Source of the DNA: Patescibacteria group bacterium
Lineage (GTDB): Bacteria; Patescibacteriota; Minisyncoccia; Phycocordibacterales; JAKFXT01
Direction of reading: 5' to 3'
DNA length: 55,153 nucleotides
NCBI GenBank assembly: GCA_021731245.1
Contig: JAKFXT010000019.1
Location: forward strand, 1 to 55,153
The position numbers and the translations under genes were made by a program. Of this stretch, positions 10,362 to 47,599 are shown piece by piece. Every line of letters starts with the position of its first letter. The stretch's first letter is position 1. The notes beneath the pieces are model-generated. The model saw only the letters and a program-made list of their open reading frames with translations, ran no database searches and was not told the origin of the DNA.

Positions 10362-10973
10362 TTATTCTTCTTTTTGCTCTTCTGTTACTTCTTCTATTTT
10401 TTCTTCGGAAAGAATTTCATCCGGCGAGCGATATCCTTTTCTTGGACGTCTCTCGCCTCCTCTCCCACTACCCAATAAATATTTTCTAGGGTTCTCGCAG
10501 AGATCAAAGAAATCATCGGTTGCTTCTTTCAAAGCGCTTGATGTTGATTTACCAAAAGAAACTACTTCTACTTGGCAACCGAAACTATTTCGAAGGAATT
10601 CAACTAAAGGAGCGAAGTCGCCATCTCCTGTTGCAAGAATTACAGTATCTAATTTTGGTGCCATGCGAATTGCATCCACCGCAAGTCCGACATCCCAGTC
10701 GGCCTTTTTTGCTCCACCCCAAAATACTTGGAGATCTTTGGTTTTTATTTCAATGCCCATTTTTGTTAGGGCCTCAAAAAAATTTGTTTCATCTCCCGCT
10801 TCTGTGGTGATGACGTAAGCAATAACGCGAATAAGTTCACGTCCTGCAACGGCATCTTTTACTACTTGGCCAAAGTTTACTTTACCGTGGTAAAGATTTT
10901 TGGCGCTATGATATAGGTTTTGGGCGTCGATAAACATACCGACACGCTGACCTTGGTGTTTTATTACACTCAT
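10362..10973 (-). CDS. NYN/LabA-DUF88 (PIN-like) domain protein
   Basis: FIDAQNLY, KKADWDVGLAVD and TGDGDFAPL acidic PIN-fold motifs. Confidence 0.9.
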   Translation of the reverse strand: MSVIKHQGQRVGMFIDAQNLYHSAKNLYHGKVNFGQVVKDAVAGRELIRVIAYVITTEAGDETNFFEALTKMGIEIKTKDLQVFWGGAKKADWDVGLAVDAIRMAPKLDTVILATGDGDFAPLVEFLRNSFGCQVEVVSFGKSTSSALKEATDDFFDLCENPRKYLLGSGRGGERRPRKGYRSPDEILSEEKIEEVTEEQKEE

Positions 10974-11072
10974 AAAAATTTGTTTGTCCTAAATTTCCAA
11001 AGGAAATTAGGCAACTAATTACTAAATTATTAAAAAATCGACAACACTTACCTTGAAAAAAGAAAAAACTAA

Positions 11073-11339
11073 CTATTTACTAAGTTCTAGTTTTTTGACG
11101 ACAGAAGCGTAGCGTTTTTCGCTCTTCTTCTTTAAATATGCCATATGGGTGCGACGATCCGCTACCATTTGCAAAAGTCCTCGGCGGGAATGCTTATCCT
11201 TTGGGTTTTTCTTTAAATGACCCGCCAATTCATCAATTCTCTTACTTAATATAGAAATCTGGACCTCAGGAGACCCTGTGTCCTTATCGTGTTTTTGCAC
11301 GACTTTTATTGCTTTTTCCTTCTTTTTCTTAGTAAGCAT
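11073..11339 (-). CDS. rpsO: 30S ribosomal protein S15
   Basis: DTGSPEVQI and KDKHSRRGLLQMV. Confidence 0.97.
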   Translation of the reverse strand: MLTKKKKEKAIKVVQKHDKDTGSPEVQISILSKRIDELAGHLKKNPKDKHSRRGLLQMVADRRTHMAYLKKKSEKRYASVVKKLELSK

Positions 11340-11412
11340 TACTCTATACATTAGCAGATTTTGGGCCTTTTGGCAATGACCTCAAAAAGGGGGTATAATA
11401 TTGTGCGACACC

Positions 11413-14069: not shown

Positions 14070-14135
14070 GGACACTCTCCCCGAAGTTGAGTTGAATGAC
14101 CTGCCTAATTAATAGTGTATGCTAAAATCAAAATA

Positions 14136-14903
14136 ATGAAAATAATTTCTTGGAATGTTAATGGTTTGCGGGCGGTGCATAGAAAAGAGTCACTCCCTCC
14201 TATTTGGAAAATGAACCCAGATATATTTTTTATAAATGAGACTAAAGCGCACCCCGAGCAACTTCCAGAAGAATTACAAAAACCGAAGGACTATTTTGCC
14301 TATTTCAACTCCGCCACTACTCGCAAAGGCTATTCTGGAGTTGCACTTTACAGCAAAGTGAAGCCAGATATGGTGGTTTATGATGTGAAAAAGATAAAAG
14401 ACGAAGAAGGTCGCTATATTGAAGCTCATTATGGAAAACTTGTAGTGATTGGTTGCTACTTTCCAAATGGTGGAGGTGAACCCCATCGTCTTAAATACAA
14501 ATTAGCCTTTTATGATCAGTTTTTGGAACACATTGAGAGTTTGAGAAAAAGTGGACACTCAATAATTTTCTGCGGTGATGTGAACGCGGCGCATGAGCCG
14601 ATAGATTTGGCGCGCCCAAAAGAAAATGACGGTGAAATTGGTTTTCTTCCGGAAGAAAGGGCTTGGATAGATGAACTTGAGTATTCGGGATATGTAGATA
14701 TTTGGAGAGAATTAAACTCAACTAAAGTGCAGTACACTTGGTGGGATGTGAAAACCGCTTCTCGCGAAAGGAATGTGGGTTGGCGTATAGACTACTTCTT
14801 TATAGGCAATAACTTAGTCAAAAAAGTGAAAAAAGTGGCCATACTAGATGAGATTTACGGCTCTGACCACTGCCCTATCTTGCTCGACATAGATTTAAAG
14901 TAG
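14136..14903 (+). CDS. xth: exodeoxyribonuclease III
   Basis: ISWNVNGLRA, GYSGVA, YFPNG, CGDVN, GWRIDY and GSDHCP. Confidence 0.96.
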   Translation: MKIISWNVNGLRAVHRKESLPPIWKMNPDIFFINETKAHPEQLPEELQKPKDYFAYFNSATTRKGYSGVALYSKVKPDMVVYDVKKIKDEEGRYIEAHYGKLVVIGCYFPNGGGEPHRLKYKLAFYDQFLEHIESLRKSGHSIIFCGDVNAAHEPIDLARPKENDGEIGFLPEERAWIDELEYSGYVDIWRELNSTKVQYTWWDVKTASRERNVGWRIDYFFIGNNLVKKVKKVAILDEIYGSDHCPILLDIDLK

Positions 14904-14923
14904 AAGAAAAATCACTATCCACA

Positions 14924-14966
14924 TATATGTCCTTTACATGTCTTTTAAAGGACATATAATTGTCCT
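14924..14966 (+). promoter_or_regulatory. promoter overlapped by an operator-like inverted repeat
   Basis: TTTACA(14933)-N16-TATAAT(14955); perfect 13-bp IR TATATGTCCTTTA-N9-TAAAGGACATATA. Confidence 0.6.
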
Positions 14967-15358
14967 AGACAAATAAGCAAAAGTTCTTTACACAATTTTT
15001 TTTGAAGACATTAATTTTGTCTTCTTCCTTCCTCTTATTCTTTTAGACGCTCGTTTAAAAGAAACAAGTCACAAGGAATTCTTGGGCCCGACTAGTTTGC
15101 TATATAAATCGCATAACCTCACGAACATATAGGGATTCGGTATAAAGAGTCTTAAAGTTTAGGACTTTCTACACCGAATCTCATTGGAATTTGGGTTAAA
15201 AGATTCAGCAAGCATAGGCAAGTACCTGGGGATCACCTCAGTGAAAACAAAAGCGCCTTAACAACGGCGATTACACTTTTTTCGACTTCTTCTCACTTCA
15301 ATTAGAAGTCATGTTCTTTGTAAGCGTAATCACAGATGTTTGGCGCTTTTTTTGTTTC
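14967..15358 (+). ncRNA. candidate structured non-coding RNA, family unknown
   Basis: No credible ORF; upstream promoter, boxA-like GTTCTTTACACAATTT, several hairpins, two long rods with G-U pairs favouring the + strand, and a 3' U-run. Confidence 0.5.
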
Positions 15359-15365
15359 CCTCTAT

Positions 15366-16850
15366 TTACTCTACAAAGTATTTTCCTCGTATTTCTTTCA
15401 CTTTCTTTTCTTGTTCTTCTTCTTTTTTATTTTTTCCTTGTTTCCCCAATTTTTCTAATTCACTAATTTCTAGTTTATTTAATTCACCGGCTTTCTTTTC
15501 TAAATATTCAATAGTGTTTAACTCAGGATTGTCTAACACCTCTTCAAAAAGGGCGTGCAAAATGTAGCCAATTTTGGGCCCTGGAGGTATGCCAAGCACC
15601 TTCATTATGGAATCCCCCTTTATCTTGAGCATTCCCACAGATATTGGGTCTTGCAGTGCCTCTTCCACCATAGATTTATACTTTCTGAACCTATAGGGGT
15701 TTTCCTTAGGTCTTCCTGTGCCTATACGGTCACAAATACGCAAATTCATAAGTTCCCAAACATCTTCTTTGCCAATGTTGGATATTAAGCGTCGGACAGC
15801 AGAAAGGGTTATTTGTTCTGGGTCAGAGAAGAACATATGCCAGCGGACCATCTTCGCGACTTTCTCAACTCGGACAGACGAGAATTTAAGCTCTGTAAGG
15901 ATTTTTTTGGTTAATTTTCCACCGACGACATCGTGTCCGTGAAAGGTATAGTCATCTTTTTCTTTAGAAAAGCGCCTTGTCTCAGGTTTGGAGACATCAT
16001 GGAACAAAGAAGCTAATCTTAAGTCTATTCCCCACTTTTTATCCGCTGCGTGCTGTAAGGTACGCAAATTATGCTCAAAAACATCATATTTATGGGCTTG
16101 ATTCTGCTCTACGCCTATTCCCCTCTCTAAATCTTTGGCAATGTATTGTAAAACCTTTAATTTTAGGGCTAATTCTAGGCCTTTTTTGGGTTCGTCTGAC
16201 ATTAAAATACGAGAAAACTCATCCCGAATACGCTCTTTGGATATCTTTTCCAGCATTTTAGCCTTATTTTGTATAGCTTTTTCGGTATTCTGTTCAATTT
16301 CAAAGCCAATTTCCGCTGAAAGGCGTATTGCGCGCAGGATTCTCAAAGCGTCTTCCTCAAATCTGTCTTCCCCTTTCCCTACCGCACGTATAATTTTGTC
16401 CTTTATATCTTTCTGACCATCGTAGGGGTCCACAATTTTCCCAGTATTTCCGTCCAAGGCGATGGCATTAATAGTGAAGTCACGACGCTTCAAATCATCT
16501 CCCAAGTTCTTACTGAAGCTCACCTTGTCTGGGTGCCTTGCGTTTGAGTAAGTTCCTTCTTCGCGATAAGTGGTGACCTCCACAACCTTCAAACTTTCGT
16601 CGGTTGCCTCGTCATTTACTACCCCCACTGTGCCGAAGGTATTTTCATAAAAAGCATGGGGGAAAATCTGGGTGATTTCTTCCGGTGTGGCGATGGTGGT
16701 GATGTCCCAATCTTTGGGATTTTGACCGCGAAGTAGATCGCGGACACAGCCTCCAACTAGGTAGTTTTCGTACCCTGCTTTTTGTAAAGCAGAAGACACG
16801 GCCAGGACTTCTTTTGGTATCTCTATTCCGTCTGTTGAAGCTCTTTTCAT
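15366..16850 (-). CDS. cca: CCA tRNA nucleotidyltransferase with HD domain
   Basis: VGGCVRDLL, DWD, RRDFTINA, RFEEDALRILRA and LFHD; start at 16850 supported by TGA-TACAAT-N7-ATG. Confidence 0.93.
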   Translation of the reverse strand: MKRASTDGIEIPKEVLAVSSALQKAGYENYLVGGCVRDLLRGQNPKDWDITTIATPEEITQIFPHAFYENTFGTVGVVNDEATDESLKVVEVTTYREEGTYSNARHPDKVSFSKNLGDDLKRRDFTINAIALDGNTGKIVDPYDGQKDIKDKIIRAVGKGEDRFEEDALRILRAIRLSAEIGFEIEQNTEKAIQNKAKMLEKISKERIRDEFSRILMSDEPKKGLELALKLKVLQYIAKDLERGIGVEQNQAHKYDVFEHNLRTLQHAADKKWGIDLRLASLFHDVSKPETRRFSKEKDDYTFHGHDVVGGKLTKKILTELKFSSVRVEKVAKMVRWHMFFSDPEQITLSAVRRLISNIGKEDVWELMNLRICDRIGTGRPKENPYRFRKYKSMVEEALQDPISVGMLKIKGDSIMKVLGIPPGPKIGYILHALFEEVLDNPELNTIEYLEKKAGELNKLEISELEKLGKQGKNKKEEEQEKKVKEIRGKYFVE

Positions 16851-16951
16851 TTCGAATATTGTATCATAATTCCCCACTTTTATACTACTCAATACCCATT
16901 TTAAGCTTGTTTTATATAGGGTTGTATATATAATATGTTATATAACAATAT

Positions 16952-17762: not shown

Positions 17763-18428
17763 ATGTATATGAGAACAGATAAGAAAGAAGCTTTTGAATT
17801 AAGGAAGCAAGGAAAAACCTTCAATGAGATTTCTAAGAGTCTTGGCATTTCTAAGGGCACTCTCTCCTTCTGGTTTAAGGGTATTGATTGGTCAAGGGAA
17901 ATTTCGGAAAAGAACTTTGTTTTCAACTACTCCCCTGAAAATATAAAGAAAATGCACATAGCCAGACGTCATATGCTTGATAAAAAATATTTATTAGCAC
18001 GTCAGGAAGCCCTAAACGAATTTGATAAATATAAGGAAGAAACGCAATTTGTGGCTGGTATTGTAGCCTATTCTGGTGAGGGTGATCATTCTGTAAAAAA
18101 TGGTATGGCGCGCATAGCAAATTCAAATCCAGGAATTATCCTTATTTTTAAACGTTTTTTAGAGAAATACTATTTTGAAATGTATAAAAAAATACGTGTA
18201 AGCATATTACTTTATCCGGATTTAAATGATGAGGAGTGTTTAAAATATTGGTCAGAAACTTTAGGTGTCTCAATCAAACAATTCCATAAACCAGTACATA
18301 TAATAGGAAAACATAAAAAAAGACGATTGCGATATGGAGTTGGAAGCCTTATAATCAGCAATAAGTTTTTTAAAATTAAACTTTTGGAATTAGAAAACTT
18401 GTGCTTACAACATTTAGCGCGGATATAG
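17763..18428 (+). CDS. HTH + LAGLIDADG-like protein (paralog 2)
   Basis: LRKQGKTFNEISKSLGISKGTLSFW HTH; FVAGIVAYSGEGD, ANSNP and YWS..LG motifs; stop codon lies inside tRNA-Gly. Confidence 0.75.
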   Translation: MYMRTDKKEAFELRKQGKTFNEISKSLGISKGTLSFWFKGIDWSREISEKNFVFNYSPENIKKMHIARRHMLDKKYLLARQEALNEFDKYKEETQFVAGIVAYSGEGDHSVKNGMARIANSNPGIILIFKRFLEKYYFEMYKKIRVSILLYPDLNDEECLKYWSETLGVSIKQFHKPVHIIGKHKKRRLRYGVGSLIISNKFFKIKLLELENLCLQHLARI

Positions 18429-18492
18429 TTTAGTGGTAGAACGCATGCTTGCCAAGCATGGGGCGGGGTTTCGATTACCCCTATCCGCACCA
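18419..18492 (+). tRNA. tRNA-Gly(GCC), CCA encoded
   Basis: GCGGATA/TATCCGC acceptor stem, CATGC-TT-GCC-AA-GCATG, TTCGATT T-loop and ACCA end. Confidence 0.94.
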
Positions 18493-18575
18493 AAAGGACA
18501 AGAAATAATAATAGACATTGAGATATGTCAAAAAAAAGTCTAAAAAACTCTTTATTTAAGCCAAATTATGAAAGC

Positions 18576-18584
18576 TGTGGATAA
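18576..18584 (-). promoter_or_regulatory. DnaA box
   Basis: TGTGGATAA is a perfect TTATCCACA on the minus strand, in an AT-rich intergenic region. Confidence 0.45.
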
Positions 18585-18690
18585 AAATGGGGATTGTGTT
18601 TATAAAAGACAATTGTAAAAAAGTAAATTTTTGTGCTAAAAGTCATTAAAGAGCCAAAGTAAGCCATTATTTGACAATTTAAGAGTAAAT

Positions 18691-18730
18691 AGTTTCATAT
18701 GAAACAAACAGATAGTTTTCACGTGAAACA
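18691..18730. promoter_or_regulatory. tandem parS-like sites
   Basis: AGTTTCATATGAAACA (18691-18706) and GTTTTCACGTGAAACA (18715-18730) against consensus TGTTTCACGTGAAACA. Confidence 0.75.
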
Positions 18731-18766
18731 CTCAAAGAAGGTAAGAATATAGCTAAAAAATTACAC

Positions 18767-47347: not shown

Positions 47348-47599
47348 ATGGAAGAGCTCTTCCATCGACTTGTTCTAAATAACGCCTTAAACCCCTTAAC
47401 CTCTAAAGACGACGAGGAGATTGTGTTTTCGGCACTTGAACGTGATTTAAAGAAACTTTATCGACGTACGGTTAATGTAAGGATTTTGGATATTGTCGTT
47501 GAAGGAAGGCCTCTTCTCGGTTGGGAAAAGGGGAGTGATTTGACAGACGAGGCAGCAATTCCGGTTACGACCGTCATCGTAAAGTACAATTTCCGCTAA
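47348..47599 (+). CDS. hypothetical small orphan protein
   Basis: G-run SD; followed by the AAAAGCCGC/GCGGCTTTT terminator. Confidence 0.5.
   Translation: MEELFHRLVLNNALNPLTSKDDEEIVFSALERDLKKLYRRTVNVRILDIVVEGRPLLGWEKGSDLTDEAAIPVTTVIVKYNFR

Follow-up and report, generated by a model that had tools for sequence, protein, structure and literature searches.

Architecture of the xth–cca intergenic unit

We examined the interval between xth and cca in a 55,153-nucleotide (nt) stretch of DNA from a member of the Patescibacteria (GenBank assembly GCA_021731245.1, contig JAKFXT010000019.1, positions 1 to 55,153; hereafter the window). The genome from which the window comes (G000) totals 694 kb in 22 contigs and is 95.6% complete. 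The unit in question spans window positions 14904–15365, between the stop codons of two convergent genes: xth, which encodes an exonuclease III family protein (14115–14903, + strand; Pfam Exo_endo_phos, E 2.4e-28), and cca, which encodes a CCA-adding enzyme with an HD domain (15366–16892, − strand; Pfam PolyA_pol, PolyA_pol_RNAbd and HD). No open reading frame (ORF) of at least 30 amino acids is listed between the xth stop (14903) and 15310; the only three frames lie at the 3′ edge (15311–15567), where they overlap cca in antisense. No gene follows on the + strand, cca being convergent. The results below support the presence here of a structured non-coding RNA (ncRNA) gene of an uncatalogued class, with a conserved promoter and a predicted transcript of ~390 nt (14967–15354, + strand, both ends predicted).

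The predicted transcript has a self-contained architecture of three hairpins and two long rods on the + strand. Its 5′ single strand carries a boxA-like segment, GUUCUUUACACAAUUUU (14983–14999), beginning ~17 nt past the predicted start (+17). Hairpin P1 (GAAGACA/UGUCUUC, 15004–15024) follows, then a pyrimidine tract (UUCCUUCCUCUU, 15025–15036) and hairpin P2 (UUCUUUUAGAC/GUUUAAAAGAA, 15038–15063), the latter present both in the single-sequence fold and in a three-sequence consensus (helix 1). Rod 1 (15092–15218) forms an extended, imperfectly paired helix that includes the stem GGGAUUCGGU/ACCGAAUCUC and is interrupted by an internal loop of 12/10 nt. A small hairpin (CUGGGG/CCUCAG, 15226–15241), which also appears in the centroid structure, separates it from Rod 2 (15244–15354), a long terminal hairpin with a G+C-rich base and a run of seven U, whose 3′ internal loop contains the heptamer GUUCUUU (15313–15319), the second copy in the transcript. 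A preliminary description of this interval had called it free of ORFs and given it a promoter of its own, a boxA-like word, hairpins and two rods. All of these were recovered: the word GTTCTTTACACAATTT is present at 14983–14998, and the hairpins GAAGACA/TGTCTTC, TTCTTTTAGAC/GTTTAAAAGAA and CTGGGG/CCTCAG, like both rods, form in the minimum-energy fold.

Rod 2 lies directly past the cca stop and is accompanied by T-runs on both strands. A simple terminator scan found no terminator in the region. In our own reading, the G+C-rich base of Rod 2 together with T7 (15342–15353) may act as a two-way terminator that also serves cca.

The promoter and its DnaA-box-like word

The predicted promoter is of the sigma-70 type (TTTACA-16-TATAAT, 14933–14960, + strand) and agrees with the consensus at 11/12 positions. 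A DnaA-box-like word, CTATCCACA (14915–14923, + strand), ends ~8–9 nt 5′ of the −35 hexamer, at about −52 to −44. Two repeats, TGTCCTTTA (14928–14936) and TGTCTTTTA (14939–14947), and an inverted copy, TAAAGGACA (14946–14954), lie over the −35 element and the spacer in an operator-like arrangement (14928–14954). Promoter-like sites are no more frequent in the region than in shuffled sequence (2 found, 2.3 expected), so the weight of this promoter comes from its conservation and not from the scan.

Judged by sequence comparison, the promoter is the most conserved part of the unit. In a BLAST comparison of 61 genomes (G000 and 60 relatives), nine relatives beyond G003 and G002 (see below) matched over the first ~45 nt only, that is, over the promoter stretch. 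Independently of these matches, we searched genome contigs with the pattern TATCCACA-N3-6-TGTCCTTTAC, which returned at least 120 stretches of genome records with one match each. Among the matches listed, nearly all are metagenome-assembled genomes of Parcubacteria/Paceibacteria (for example Kaiser-, Taylor-, Campbell-, Adler- and Nomurabacteria); a few are otherwise labelled, and one (L033) looks like a chance match in other sequence. With up to one mismatch allowed, the pattern occurred in 8/301 genomes of a class-wide sample, in exactly one copy each.

We aligned 129 distinct loci on the pattern anchor. Since the search pattern includes the DnaA box 8-mer TATCCACA and TGTCCTTTAC, all of these loci contain them by design. 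The perfect word TTATCCACA, which we take to be the DnaA-box consensus, is found in 110 of the 129 loci. AAGGACA occurs upstream in 65/129 loci and in the spacer in 19/129, and a second TGTC(C/T)(T/A)T stands in the spacer in 73/129. A TAnnnT hexamer lies 16–18 nt from TTTACA in 119/129 loci; its letters vary at a fixed spacing, which argues for a real promoter rather than a frozen repeat.

Similar arrangements occur elsewhere in G000. TTATCCACA or ATATCCACA lies 29–42 nt 5′ of TATAAT-like hexamers at C4:41617, C12:4783 and C8:24087 and at window position 2889, and DnaA, or another reader of that word, may control several G000 genes. One 286-aa protein (G000:C4:40442–41302; L324:243–1103) ends in a weakly scoring winged helix of the DeoR type (E 4e-4, just under the cut-off). 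AAGGACA/AAAGACA words are frequent both upstream of its gene and within the coding sequence, and it is a tentative candidate for the reader of the TGTCCTTTA repeats. A cluster of TGTCCTT-like words 5′ of dnaA lies inside the rnpA coding sequence and was set aside as chance.

Fold and compensatory changes

The minimum-energy fold of the predicted transcript has a free energy of −110.6 kcal/mol, against −76 ± 5.3 in dinucleotide shuffles (z −6.57; none of 100 shuffles as good). An RNAalifold consensus from an alignment of G000, G003 and G002 contains 94 pairs, with 90.9% of cells paired. Sixteen pairs show double-sided changes, compared with 6.8 ± 1.9 in column shuffles (0/500 as high) and with 1–4 pairs in controls with slid partners. 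Five of the pairs in helix 5 of Rod 1 changed on both sides, for example by CG/GC swaps in G002, and five more lie in helix 8 of Rod 2. The closing pairing of the single-sequence fold is not conserved; the consensus fold consists of separate helices. MAFFT misaligned the more distant rods, and the formal count is confined to the three sequences.

Individual parts can be followed in the aligned sequences. P1 reads GAAGGCA/UGCCUUC in G003 and GAAGGUU/AACCUUC in G002. The pyrimidine tract 3′ of P1 is kept as CCUUCUCCUUCC in both, with a similar CAUCCUUCCUCU in the congener G004. G003 and G002 retain CAUUGGAAUUUGG on the 3′ side of the Rod 1 internal loop, and G004 has a similar sequence there.

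Rod 1, Rod 2 and the 5′ part are each single copy in G000 (blastn against all 22 contigs gave only chance words of up to 17 nt). The lack of other genomic copies of the rods or the 5′ part argues against a dispersed palindromic mobile element, of the kind of a miniature inverted-repeat transposable element.

Homologues and spread of the unit

BLAST recovered the whole element only in G003 (76% identity over 447 nt) and its 5′ half in G002 (71% identity); the proteins flanking the unit are 85–90% identical in comparison. In G004, with an xth of 65% identity, the parts follow one another as in G000 (boxA word, P1, pyrimidine tract, P2, rod, CAUUGG...GGGG, terminal rod), with stem letters that are largely different. 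The layout of the terminal rod is alike in 7/7 family-level sequences, again with different stem letters: a G+C-rich closing stem, a middle stem and an apical hairpin, with GUUCUUU on the 3′ side and then a U-run. In the congener G001 (L328, C2), xth is followed only by a short G+C-rich hairpin, beyond which lies an opposite-strand coding region that, by eye, is unlike the usual neighbour.

At greater distances the sequence of the RNA body is lost. Past the promoter the unit measures 110–450 nt and is unalignable beyond the genus, and Rod 1 is not recognisable outside it. An nhmmer search of 131 loci with a three-sequence profile matched only genus-level copies, and of the 120 stretches obtained by scanning metagenomes for the boxA word, only two are this RNA (of the G002 and G003 types), adding no new diversity. 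Folding is kept: in 50 loci drawn at random from 88 eligible ones, the 250 nt after the promoter have a mean z of −3.51, compared with −0.54 in an upstream coding control (Mann-Whitney p 6e-9). The neighbourhood is also kept, with an xth homologue beside the unit in 90/132 loci and cca in 78/132, and with the unit in both orientations.

GUUCUUU is the only word shared by the RNA bodies

Across loci, the RNA bodies share a single word, GUUCUUU. Its DNA form GTTCTTT occurs in the sense direction in 62 of 89 loci, once in 39, twice in 21 and three times in two, with a mean of 0.98 per locus against 0.05 in shuffles (~20-fold). The antisense word occurs in 5/89 loci and the reversed word in 7/89. 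Counted over 480 nt, GTTCTTT is present in 77/118 loci. Members of the window's family carry one GUUCUUU close to the 5′ end and another within the 3′ internal loop of the terminal rod. The case for a promoter-strand RNA as the product is made most strongly by the enrichment of the word on one strand.

GUUCUUU resembles what we take to be the E. coli consensus for boxA of rRNA leaders. G000 encodes NusB (120.4 bits, within a 342-aa open frame), and the same heptamer stands 3′ of the RNase P RNA promoter, in the leader of that RNA. GTTCTTT also precedes eight small genes (83–153 aa), 6–45 nt before the start codon and just 5′ of the ribosome-binding site (G000 C3:55511–55873, C3:36377–36709, C3:29303–29692, C3:23459–23833, C10:71–445, C11:14790–15083 and C11:244–705; window 47348–47599). 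Seven of these have no Pfam family and one is a LuxR/GerE-type regulator. Their number is a modest excess, eight versus roughly three by a rough estimate. One study shows that boxA can also act outside rRNA, and says that non-coding RNAs were left out of its survey (PMC5725501).

Two stretches of G000, one upstream of RNase P (C11:19385–19430) and one in the 23S leader (C4:51730–51880), share CCCCTCACATGAATT...GTTGC(C)TACAAG. In the 23S leader the shared CCCCTCACATGAATT stretch is part of a long inverted repeat.

Comparison with known RNA families

At gathering scores, Rfam 15 finds four tRNAs in the window and nothing else. With the threshold relaxed to E ≤10 over 14850–15450, the hits (U5, mir-581, TCL6_2, L13-Bacteroidia leader and STnc550) are at chance level and were rejected, so no family matches the locus even at that setting. 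The lack of RNase P, tmRNA and signal recognition particle (SRP) signatures, noted in the preliminary description, agrees with this result. RNase P RNA and tmRNA are encoded elsewhere in the genome, at C11:19476–19838 (85.8 bits, below the cut-off of 100) and C6:11523–11898 (102.6 bits), respectively.

For 6S RNA (RF00013, gathering score 46.4 bits) there is no match in 14850–15450 at E ≤10 with lax filters. In shape, too, the unit differs from 6S RNAs, which measure ~150–200 nt: it is ~390 nt long and multi-domain, and its 5′ and 3′ ends close no single rod. A separate 6S candidate is found at G000 C6:18341–18450 (minus strand; 25.8 bits, below the 46.4 cut-off), with a GGGAG...CACCCACCU core; it occupies a 260-nt intergenic gap of its own and is followed by a terminator-like hairpin. 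A literature search found nothing relevant on ncRNA or 6S RNA in Patescibacteria.

SRP RNA (RF00169, RF01854) has no match in the G000 genome or across 21 genomes, G000 included. G000 also lacks a detectable Ffh M domain (SRP_SPB) and an SRP54-type GTPase, that is, both Ffh and FtsY, and its six-frame translation contains no SRP-type ORF with the motifs DTAGR and TKxD...RGG. We rejected a reading of the unit as SRP RNA since Ffh and FtsY were not found in G000. More broadly, 41 genomes (G000 and 40 relatives) gave only partial P-loop matches to the SRP54 family, and the Ffh M domain was found in 0/81 genomes sampled across the phylum; control genomes were positive for both proteins in 14/14 cases. 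The failure to find the SRP pathway could be a real lineage-wide loss or a gap in the sensitivity of the first-look filter for divergent genomes. No publication stating that SRP is absent from Patescibacteria was found in a full-text literature search.

The unit lies beside the probable chromosome origin

In 5/5 genomes tested, dnaA lies on the same contig as the unit, 24–30 kb away. In G000, dnaA is on contig C7, and the distance would fit if C7 adjoins C5. The rpmH-dnaA spacer of G000 is only ~60 bp, so no classical origin fits there. In G061 (a 686-kb contig of 685,965 bp), cumulative GC skew has its minimum at 79,950 within a flat valley of 60–88 kb and its maximum at 474 kb; the RNA promoter is at 85,437, and between 55.5 and 83.2 kb every large ORF, that of dnaA among them, lies on the minus strand. 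In G062, 2.7 kb separate the skew minimum from the RNA promoter. G065 has a valley that is flat over ~50 kb, and G063 has its minimum at dnaA, at a distance of 28 kb. The window itself has a skew valley at ~11.3–18 kb and a gene-strand switch at ~11 kb; across the window and the relatives compared, the switch lies ~2–6 kb from the locus. A gap at the switch (10973–11401) was considered and dismissed: it has no DnaA box and by eye resembles a small minus-strand ORF.

DnaA boxes form no cluster at the promoter (one in G000, two adjacent in G061) and are not in excess in the transcribed body (7 forward versus 8.6 in shuffles). Words resembling parS, scored with up to two mismatches to the consensus, occur within ±800 nt of the promoter in 48/132 loci, often two to four times, where chance would give ~0.003 per locus by a rough estimate. 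In 12 loci with the cca-RNA-xth arrangement (for example L026, L027, L041, L060, L064 and L081), a parS-like TGGTTCACGTGAAACA occupies a fixed place inside the cca coding sequence, about −570 to −650 from the promoter, and loci of the other arrangement have similar words in cca.

A further non-coding module occupies positions 18490–18766 of the window, after a tRNA (18419–18489). It contains TGTGGATAA (18576–18584), another box-like word, AAGGACA/AAAGACA, A+T-rich DNA and a parS-like GTTTTCACGTGAAACA (18715–18730). In 5/5 genomes examined, this module follows a tRNA 2.2–3.7 kb from the RNA promoter and has two DnaA-type boxes ~11 nt apart, AAGGACA/AAAGACA, A+T-rich DNA and a perfect or near-perfect parS site; it is 24–30 kb away from dnaA. 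Its counterparts are at G061:C1 89,120–89,330, G062:C2 47,650–48,050, G063:C2 131,250–131,700 and G065:C4 47,850–48,250. The second module, likely the origin proper of these genomes, is a better candidate for that role than the RNA unit. We found no publication on replication origins of Patescibacteria in a full-text literature search.

Discussion

The conserved promoter, the covariation and the lack of a matching Rfam family uphold one half of what the preliminary description had proposed, a novel class of structured RNA; its other half, a divergent 6S-like RNA, is not supported. From these sequence comparisons, the unit is probably a real, selected non-coding transcript. That the promoter serves as a target for DnaA and a second, TGTCCTTTA-binding factor has, in our judgement, about an even chance. 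DnaA and this factor would together set transcription, so that the level of the RNA would follow the state of replication initiation. The RNA would then display single-stranded, boxA-like GUUCUUU motifs on a variable structured scaffold and serve as a decoy or platform for a GUUCUUU-reading protein, for which NusB-S10 would be the obvious candidate. Motif-display or decoy RNAs look much like this, with a short single-stranded word preserved while the folded scaffold around it varies, and we put this mechanism forward tentatively, as a rather doubtful part of the proposal. Taken as a whole, the statement that the unit is a lineage-specific ncRNA set by DnaA, displaying GUUCUUU and perhaps acting as a decoy, falls in our judgement a little short of an even chance.

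Several observations weigh against this proposal. G001, a congener, lacks both the unit after xth and any match to the promoter, which shows that loss or relocation of the unit can occur. In the class-wide sample, the strict promoter pattern was present in only 5/13 genomes of the window's own order, and at one locus (L048) an ORF apparently begins within ~60 nt of the promoter. GTTCTTT is missing from 27 of the 89 loci. A search of the 95.6%-complete G000 gave no Rho RNA-binding domain (PF07497), which removes the usual rationale for boxA antitermination; the words in the rRNA leaders of G000 differ somewhat from GUUCUUU (TGTTATTTGACAA for 16S, TGATATTTGATAA for 23S), and the genes with GTTCTTT leaders, compared with Pfam, are not Nus or ribosomal genes. 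The covariation count comes from three close sequences, together with a comparison of four more by eye. A covariance model of Rod 2 from the three sequences found one further match, in G006, which is weak (19.3 bits, E 0.13), and missed G004, G007 and G010. The minus strand folds as well as the plus strand (−111.6 kcal/mol, z −6.26). In three homologues the plus/minus energies are −111.6/−115.3, −120.6/−116.5 and −122.9/−143.0, with neither strand consistently favoured, and G-U pairs counted on each strand's own consensus are similar (33 versus 28); the earlier claim that G-U wobbles favour the + strand is therefore not sustained. Taken by themselves, the helices could just as well be palindromes in the DNA, given this equal folding of the two strands. 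The strand is assigned by the conserved promoter and the strand-specific GTTCTTT word, not by folding.

The main alternative is that the unit is no independent RNA gene and forms one arm of a bipartite, transcription-coupled chromosome origin. DnaA bound beside the promoter would fire or block the transcript; supercoiling, an R-loop or a primer would help to open the neighbouring module; and the hairpins may act as single-stranded DNA or RNA. The position of the locus in the skew valley near the gene-strand switch fits such an arrangement, as do the short rpmH-dnaA spacer, the parS-like sites in or beside the unit and the joint recurrence of a DnaA box and AAGGACA in the second module in 5/5 genomes. 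The unit holds the best-conserved DnaA box of the region, its promoter is far more conserved than the RNA body, and its two strands fold equally well. We nevertheless consider this alternative improbable. One or two DnaA boxes, with no excess in the transcribed body, are few for an origin, and no clear DnaA-trio pattern or unwinding element is seen by eye. The skew data from G063 and G065 do not point to the locus, and the unit stands in either orientation between xth and cca. The strand-specific GUUCUUU and the conserved terminal rod around it point instead to an RNA product. Ranked next, and slightly less probable again, is a gap that makes no functional RNA and serves as a store of DNA-level elements (two-way terminators for xth and cca, parS, a DnaA box and remnants of palindromic hairpin insertions), with the palindromes giving rise to the low folding energy. 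This too would account for the equal folding of both strands, and for a length that ranges from ~110 to 450 nt between lineages, for Rod 2 and its T-runs next to the cca stop and for the absence of the unit from G001. The same strand-specific word, ~20-fold enriched on the promoter strand only, speaks against it, and so does a promoter conserved order-wide with varied −10 letters at fixed spacing. In addition, the rods and the 5′ part are single copy in the 694-kb genome, conservation within the genus exceeds what is expected of an unconstrained spacer, and the compensatory changes maintain long helices that a terminator does not need.

Two further alternatives make the unit an RNA of a known kind. 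One is a divergent RNA of the 6S type, a reading offered in the preliminary description, or of the Ms1 type, in which Rod 1 would bind RNA polymerase. It would explain the 12/10-nt internal loop flanked by stems and the conservation of CAUUGGAAUUUGG on its 3′ side, and poor sequence similarity would be no surprise for an RNA that, like 6S, keeps shape over sequence. With no RF00013 match, about twice the usual 6S size, several domains, a Rod 1 that is unrecognisable outside the genus and a separate, better though sub-threshold 6S candidate at C6:18341–18450 (25.8 bits), we hold this to be quite improbable. Least probable by far, and to our minds very remote, is a divergent SRP RNA, RNase P RNA or tmRNA, or a leader or small-protein gene. 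The SRP RNA slot of the genome does appear empty, no such RNA having been found in it; against this stand the failure to find the Ffh M domain and the SRP54-type GTPase in G000, the location of RNase P RNA and tmRNA elsewhere and the absence of any Rfam match at E ≤10. A leader or small-protein gene fits poorly with an interval (14904–15310) that has no ORF of at least 30 aa and no + strand gene behind it, cca being convergent.

The ncRNA reading and the origin-side location could also be joined. In this order of ultra-small bacteria the origin might be split in two and wired to the ncRNA, such that DnaA, bound immediately 5′ of the −35 element of the xth-cca promoter, switches a Nus-type, boxA-marked polymerase onto a structured, untranslated region, and transcription or its RNA licenses opening or segregation at the DnaA-box/parS module 2–4 kb away. 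We think this combination unlikely. If true, a bacterial origin coupled to RNA in this way would depart from the models for E. coli and B. subtilis.

To our knowledge, almost no regulatory RNAs have been described in the Patescibacteria (candidate phyla). The unit would represent a new RNA family with clear boundaries, traceable through at least 120 genome records with the promoter motif, and its promoter joins a candidate binding site for the replication initiator to an ncRNA. The order xth - RNA - cca - tRNA-Gly - DnaA boxes/parS may serve as a landmark for the origin region in uncultured genomes. If control by DnaA or display of GUUCUUU is true, replication status would be passed to RNA-level regulation in a 0.7-Mb genome.

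Four known systems offer comparisons. 6S RNAs keep shape rather than sequence; like 6S (RF00013) and Ms1, the unit has a promoter and a terminator of its own, predicted here, and a shape kept over sequence, and Rod 1 is a helix with an internal bubble. It differs from them in its length of ~390 nt, its five or more helices, a rod not closed by the transcript ends and a Rod 1 that is not kept beyond the genus. As in the boxA elements of E. coli rrn and suhB (PMC5725501, PMC4807359), a U-rich word of the form GyUCUUUA-ACAA lies near the 5′ end of a predicted untranslated transcript, in a genome that encodes NusB. The word of the unit differs by an extra base relative to the E. coli consensus and by a second copy in the loop of the terminal rod, and Rho was not found in G000.

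In E. coli, mioC and gidA flank oriC, and their promoters have ties to both DnaA and the activity of the origin. The unit resembles them in having a DnaA-box promoter beside a candidate origin region and a transcript without an obvious coding role there. mioC and gidA are protein-coding, whereas the predicted product of the unit is a structured RNA with a boxA-like word, whose own predicted terminator comes 3 kb before the second module. Finally, CsrB and RsmZ are protein-sponge RNAs that carry many copies of the recognised word GGA. The unit has one to three copies, of GUUCUUU and not GGA, and a partner that is a candidate only. It resembles these RNAs in that only a short, repeated, single-stranded word is kept on a variable scaffold, and in that the same word stands near the ribosome-binding sites of mRNAs.

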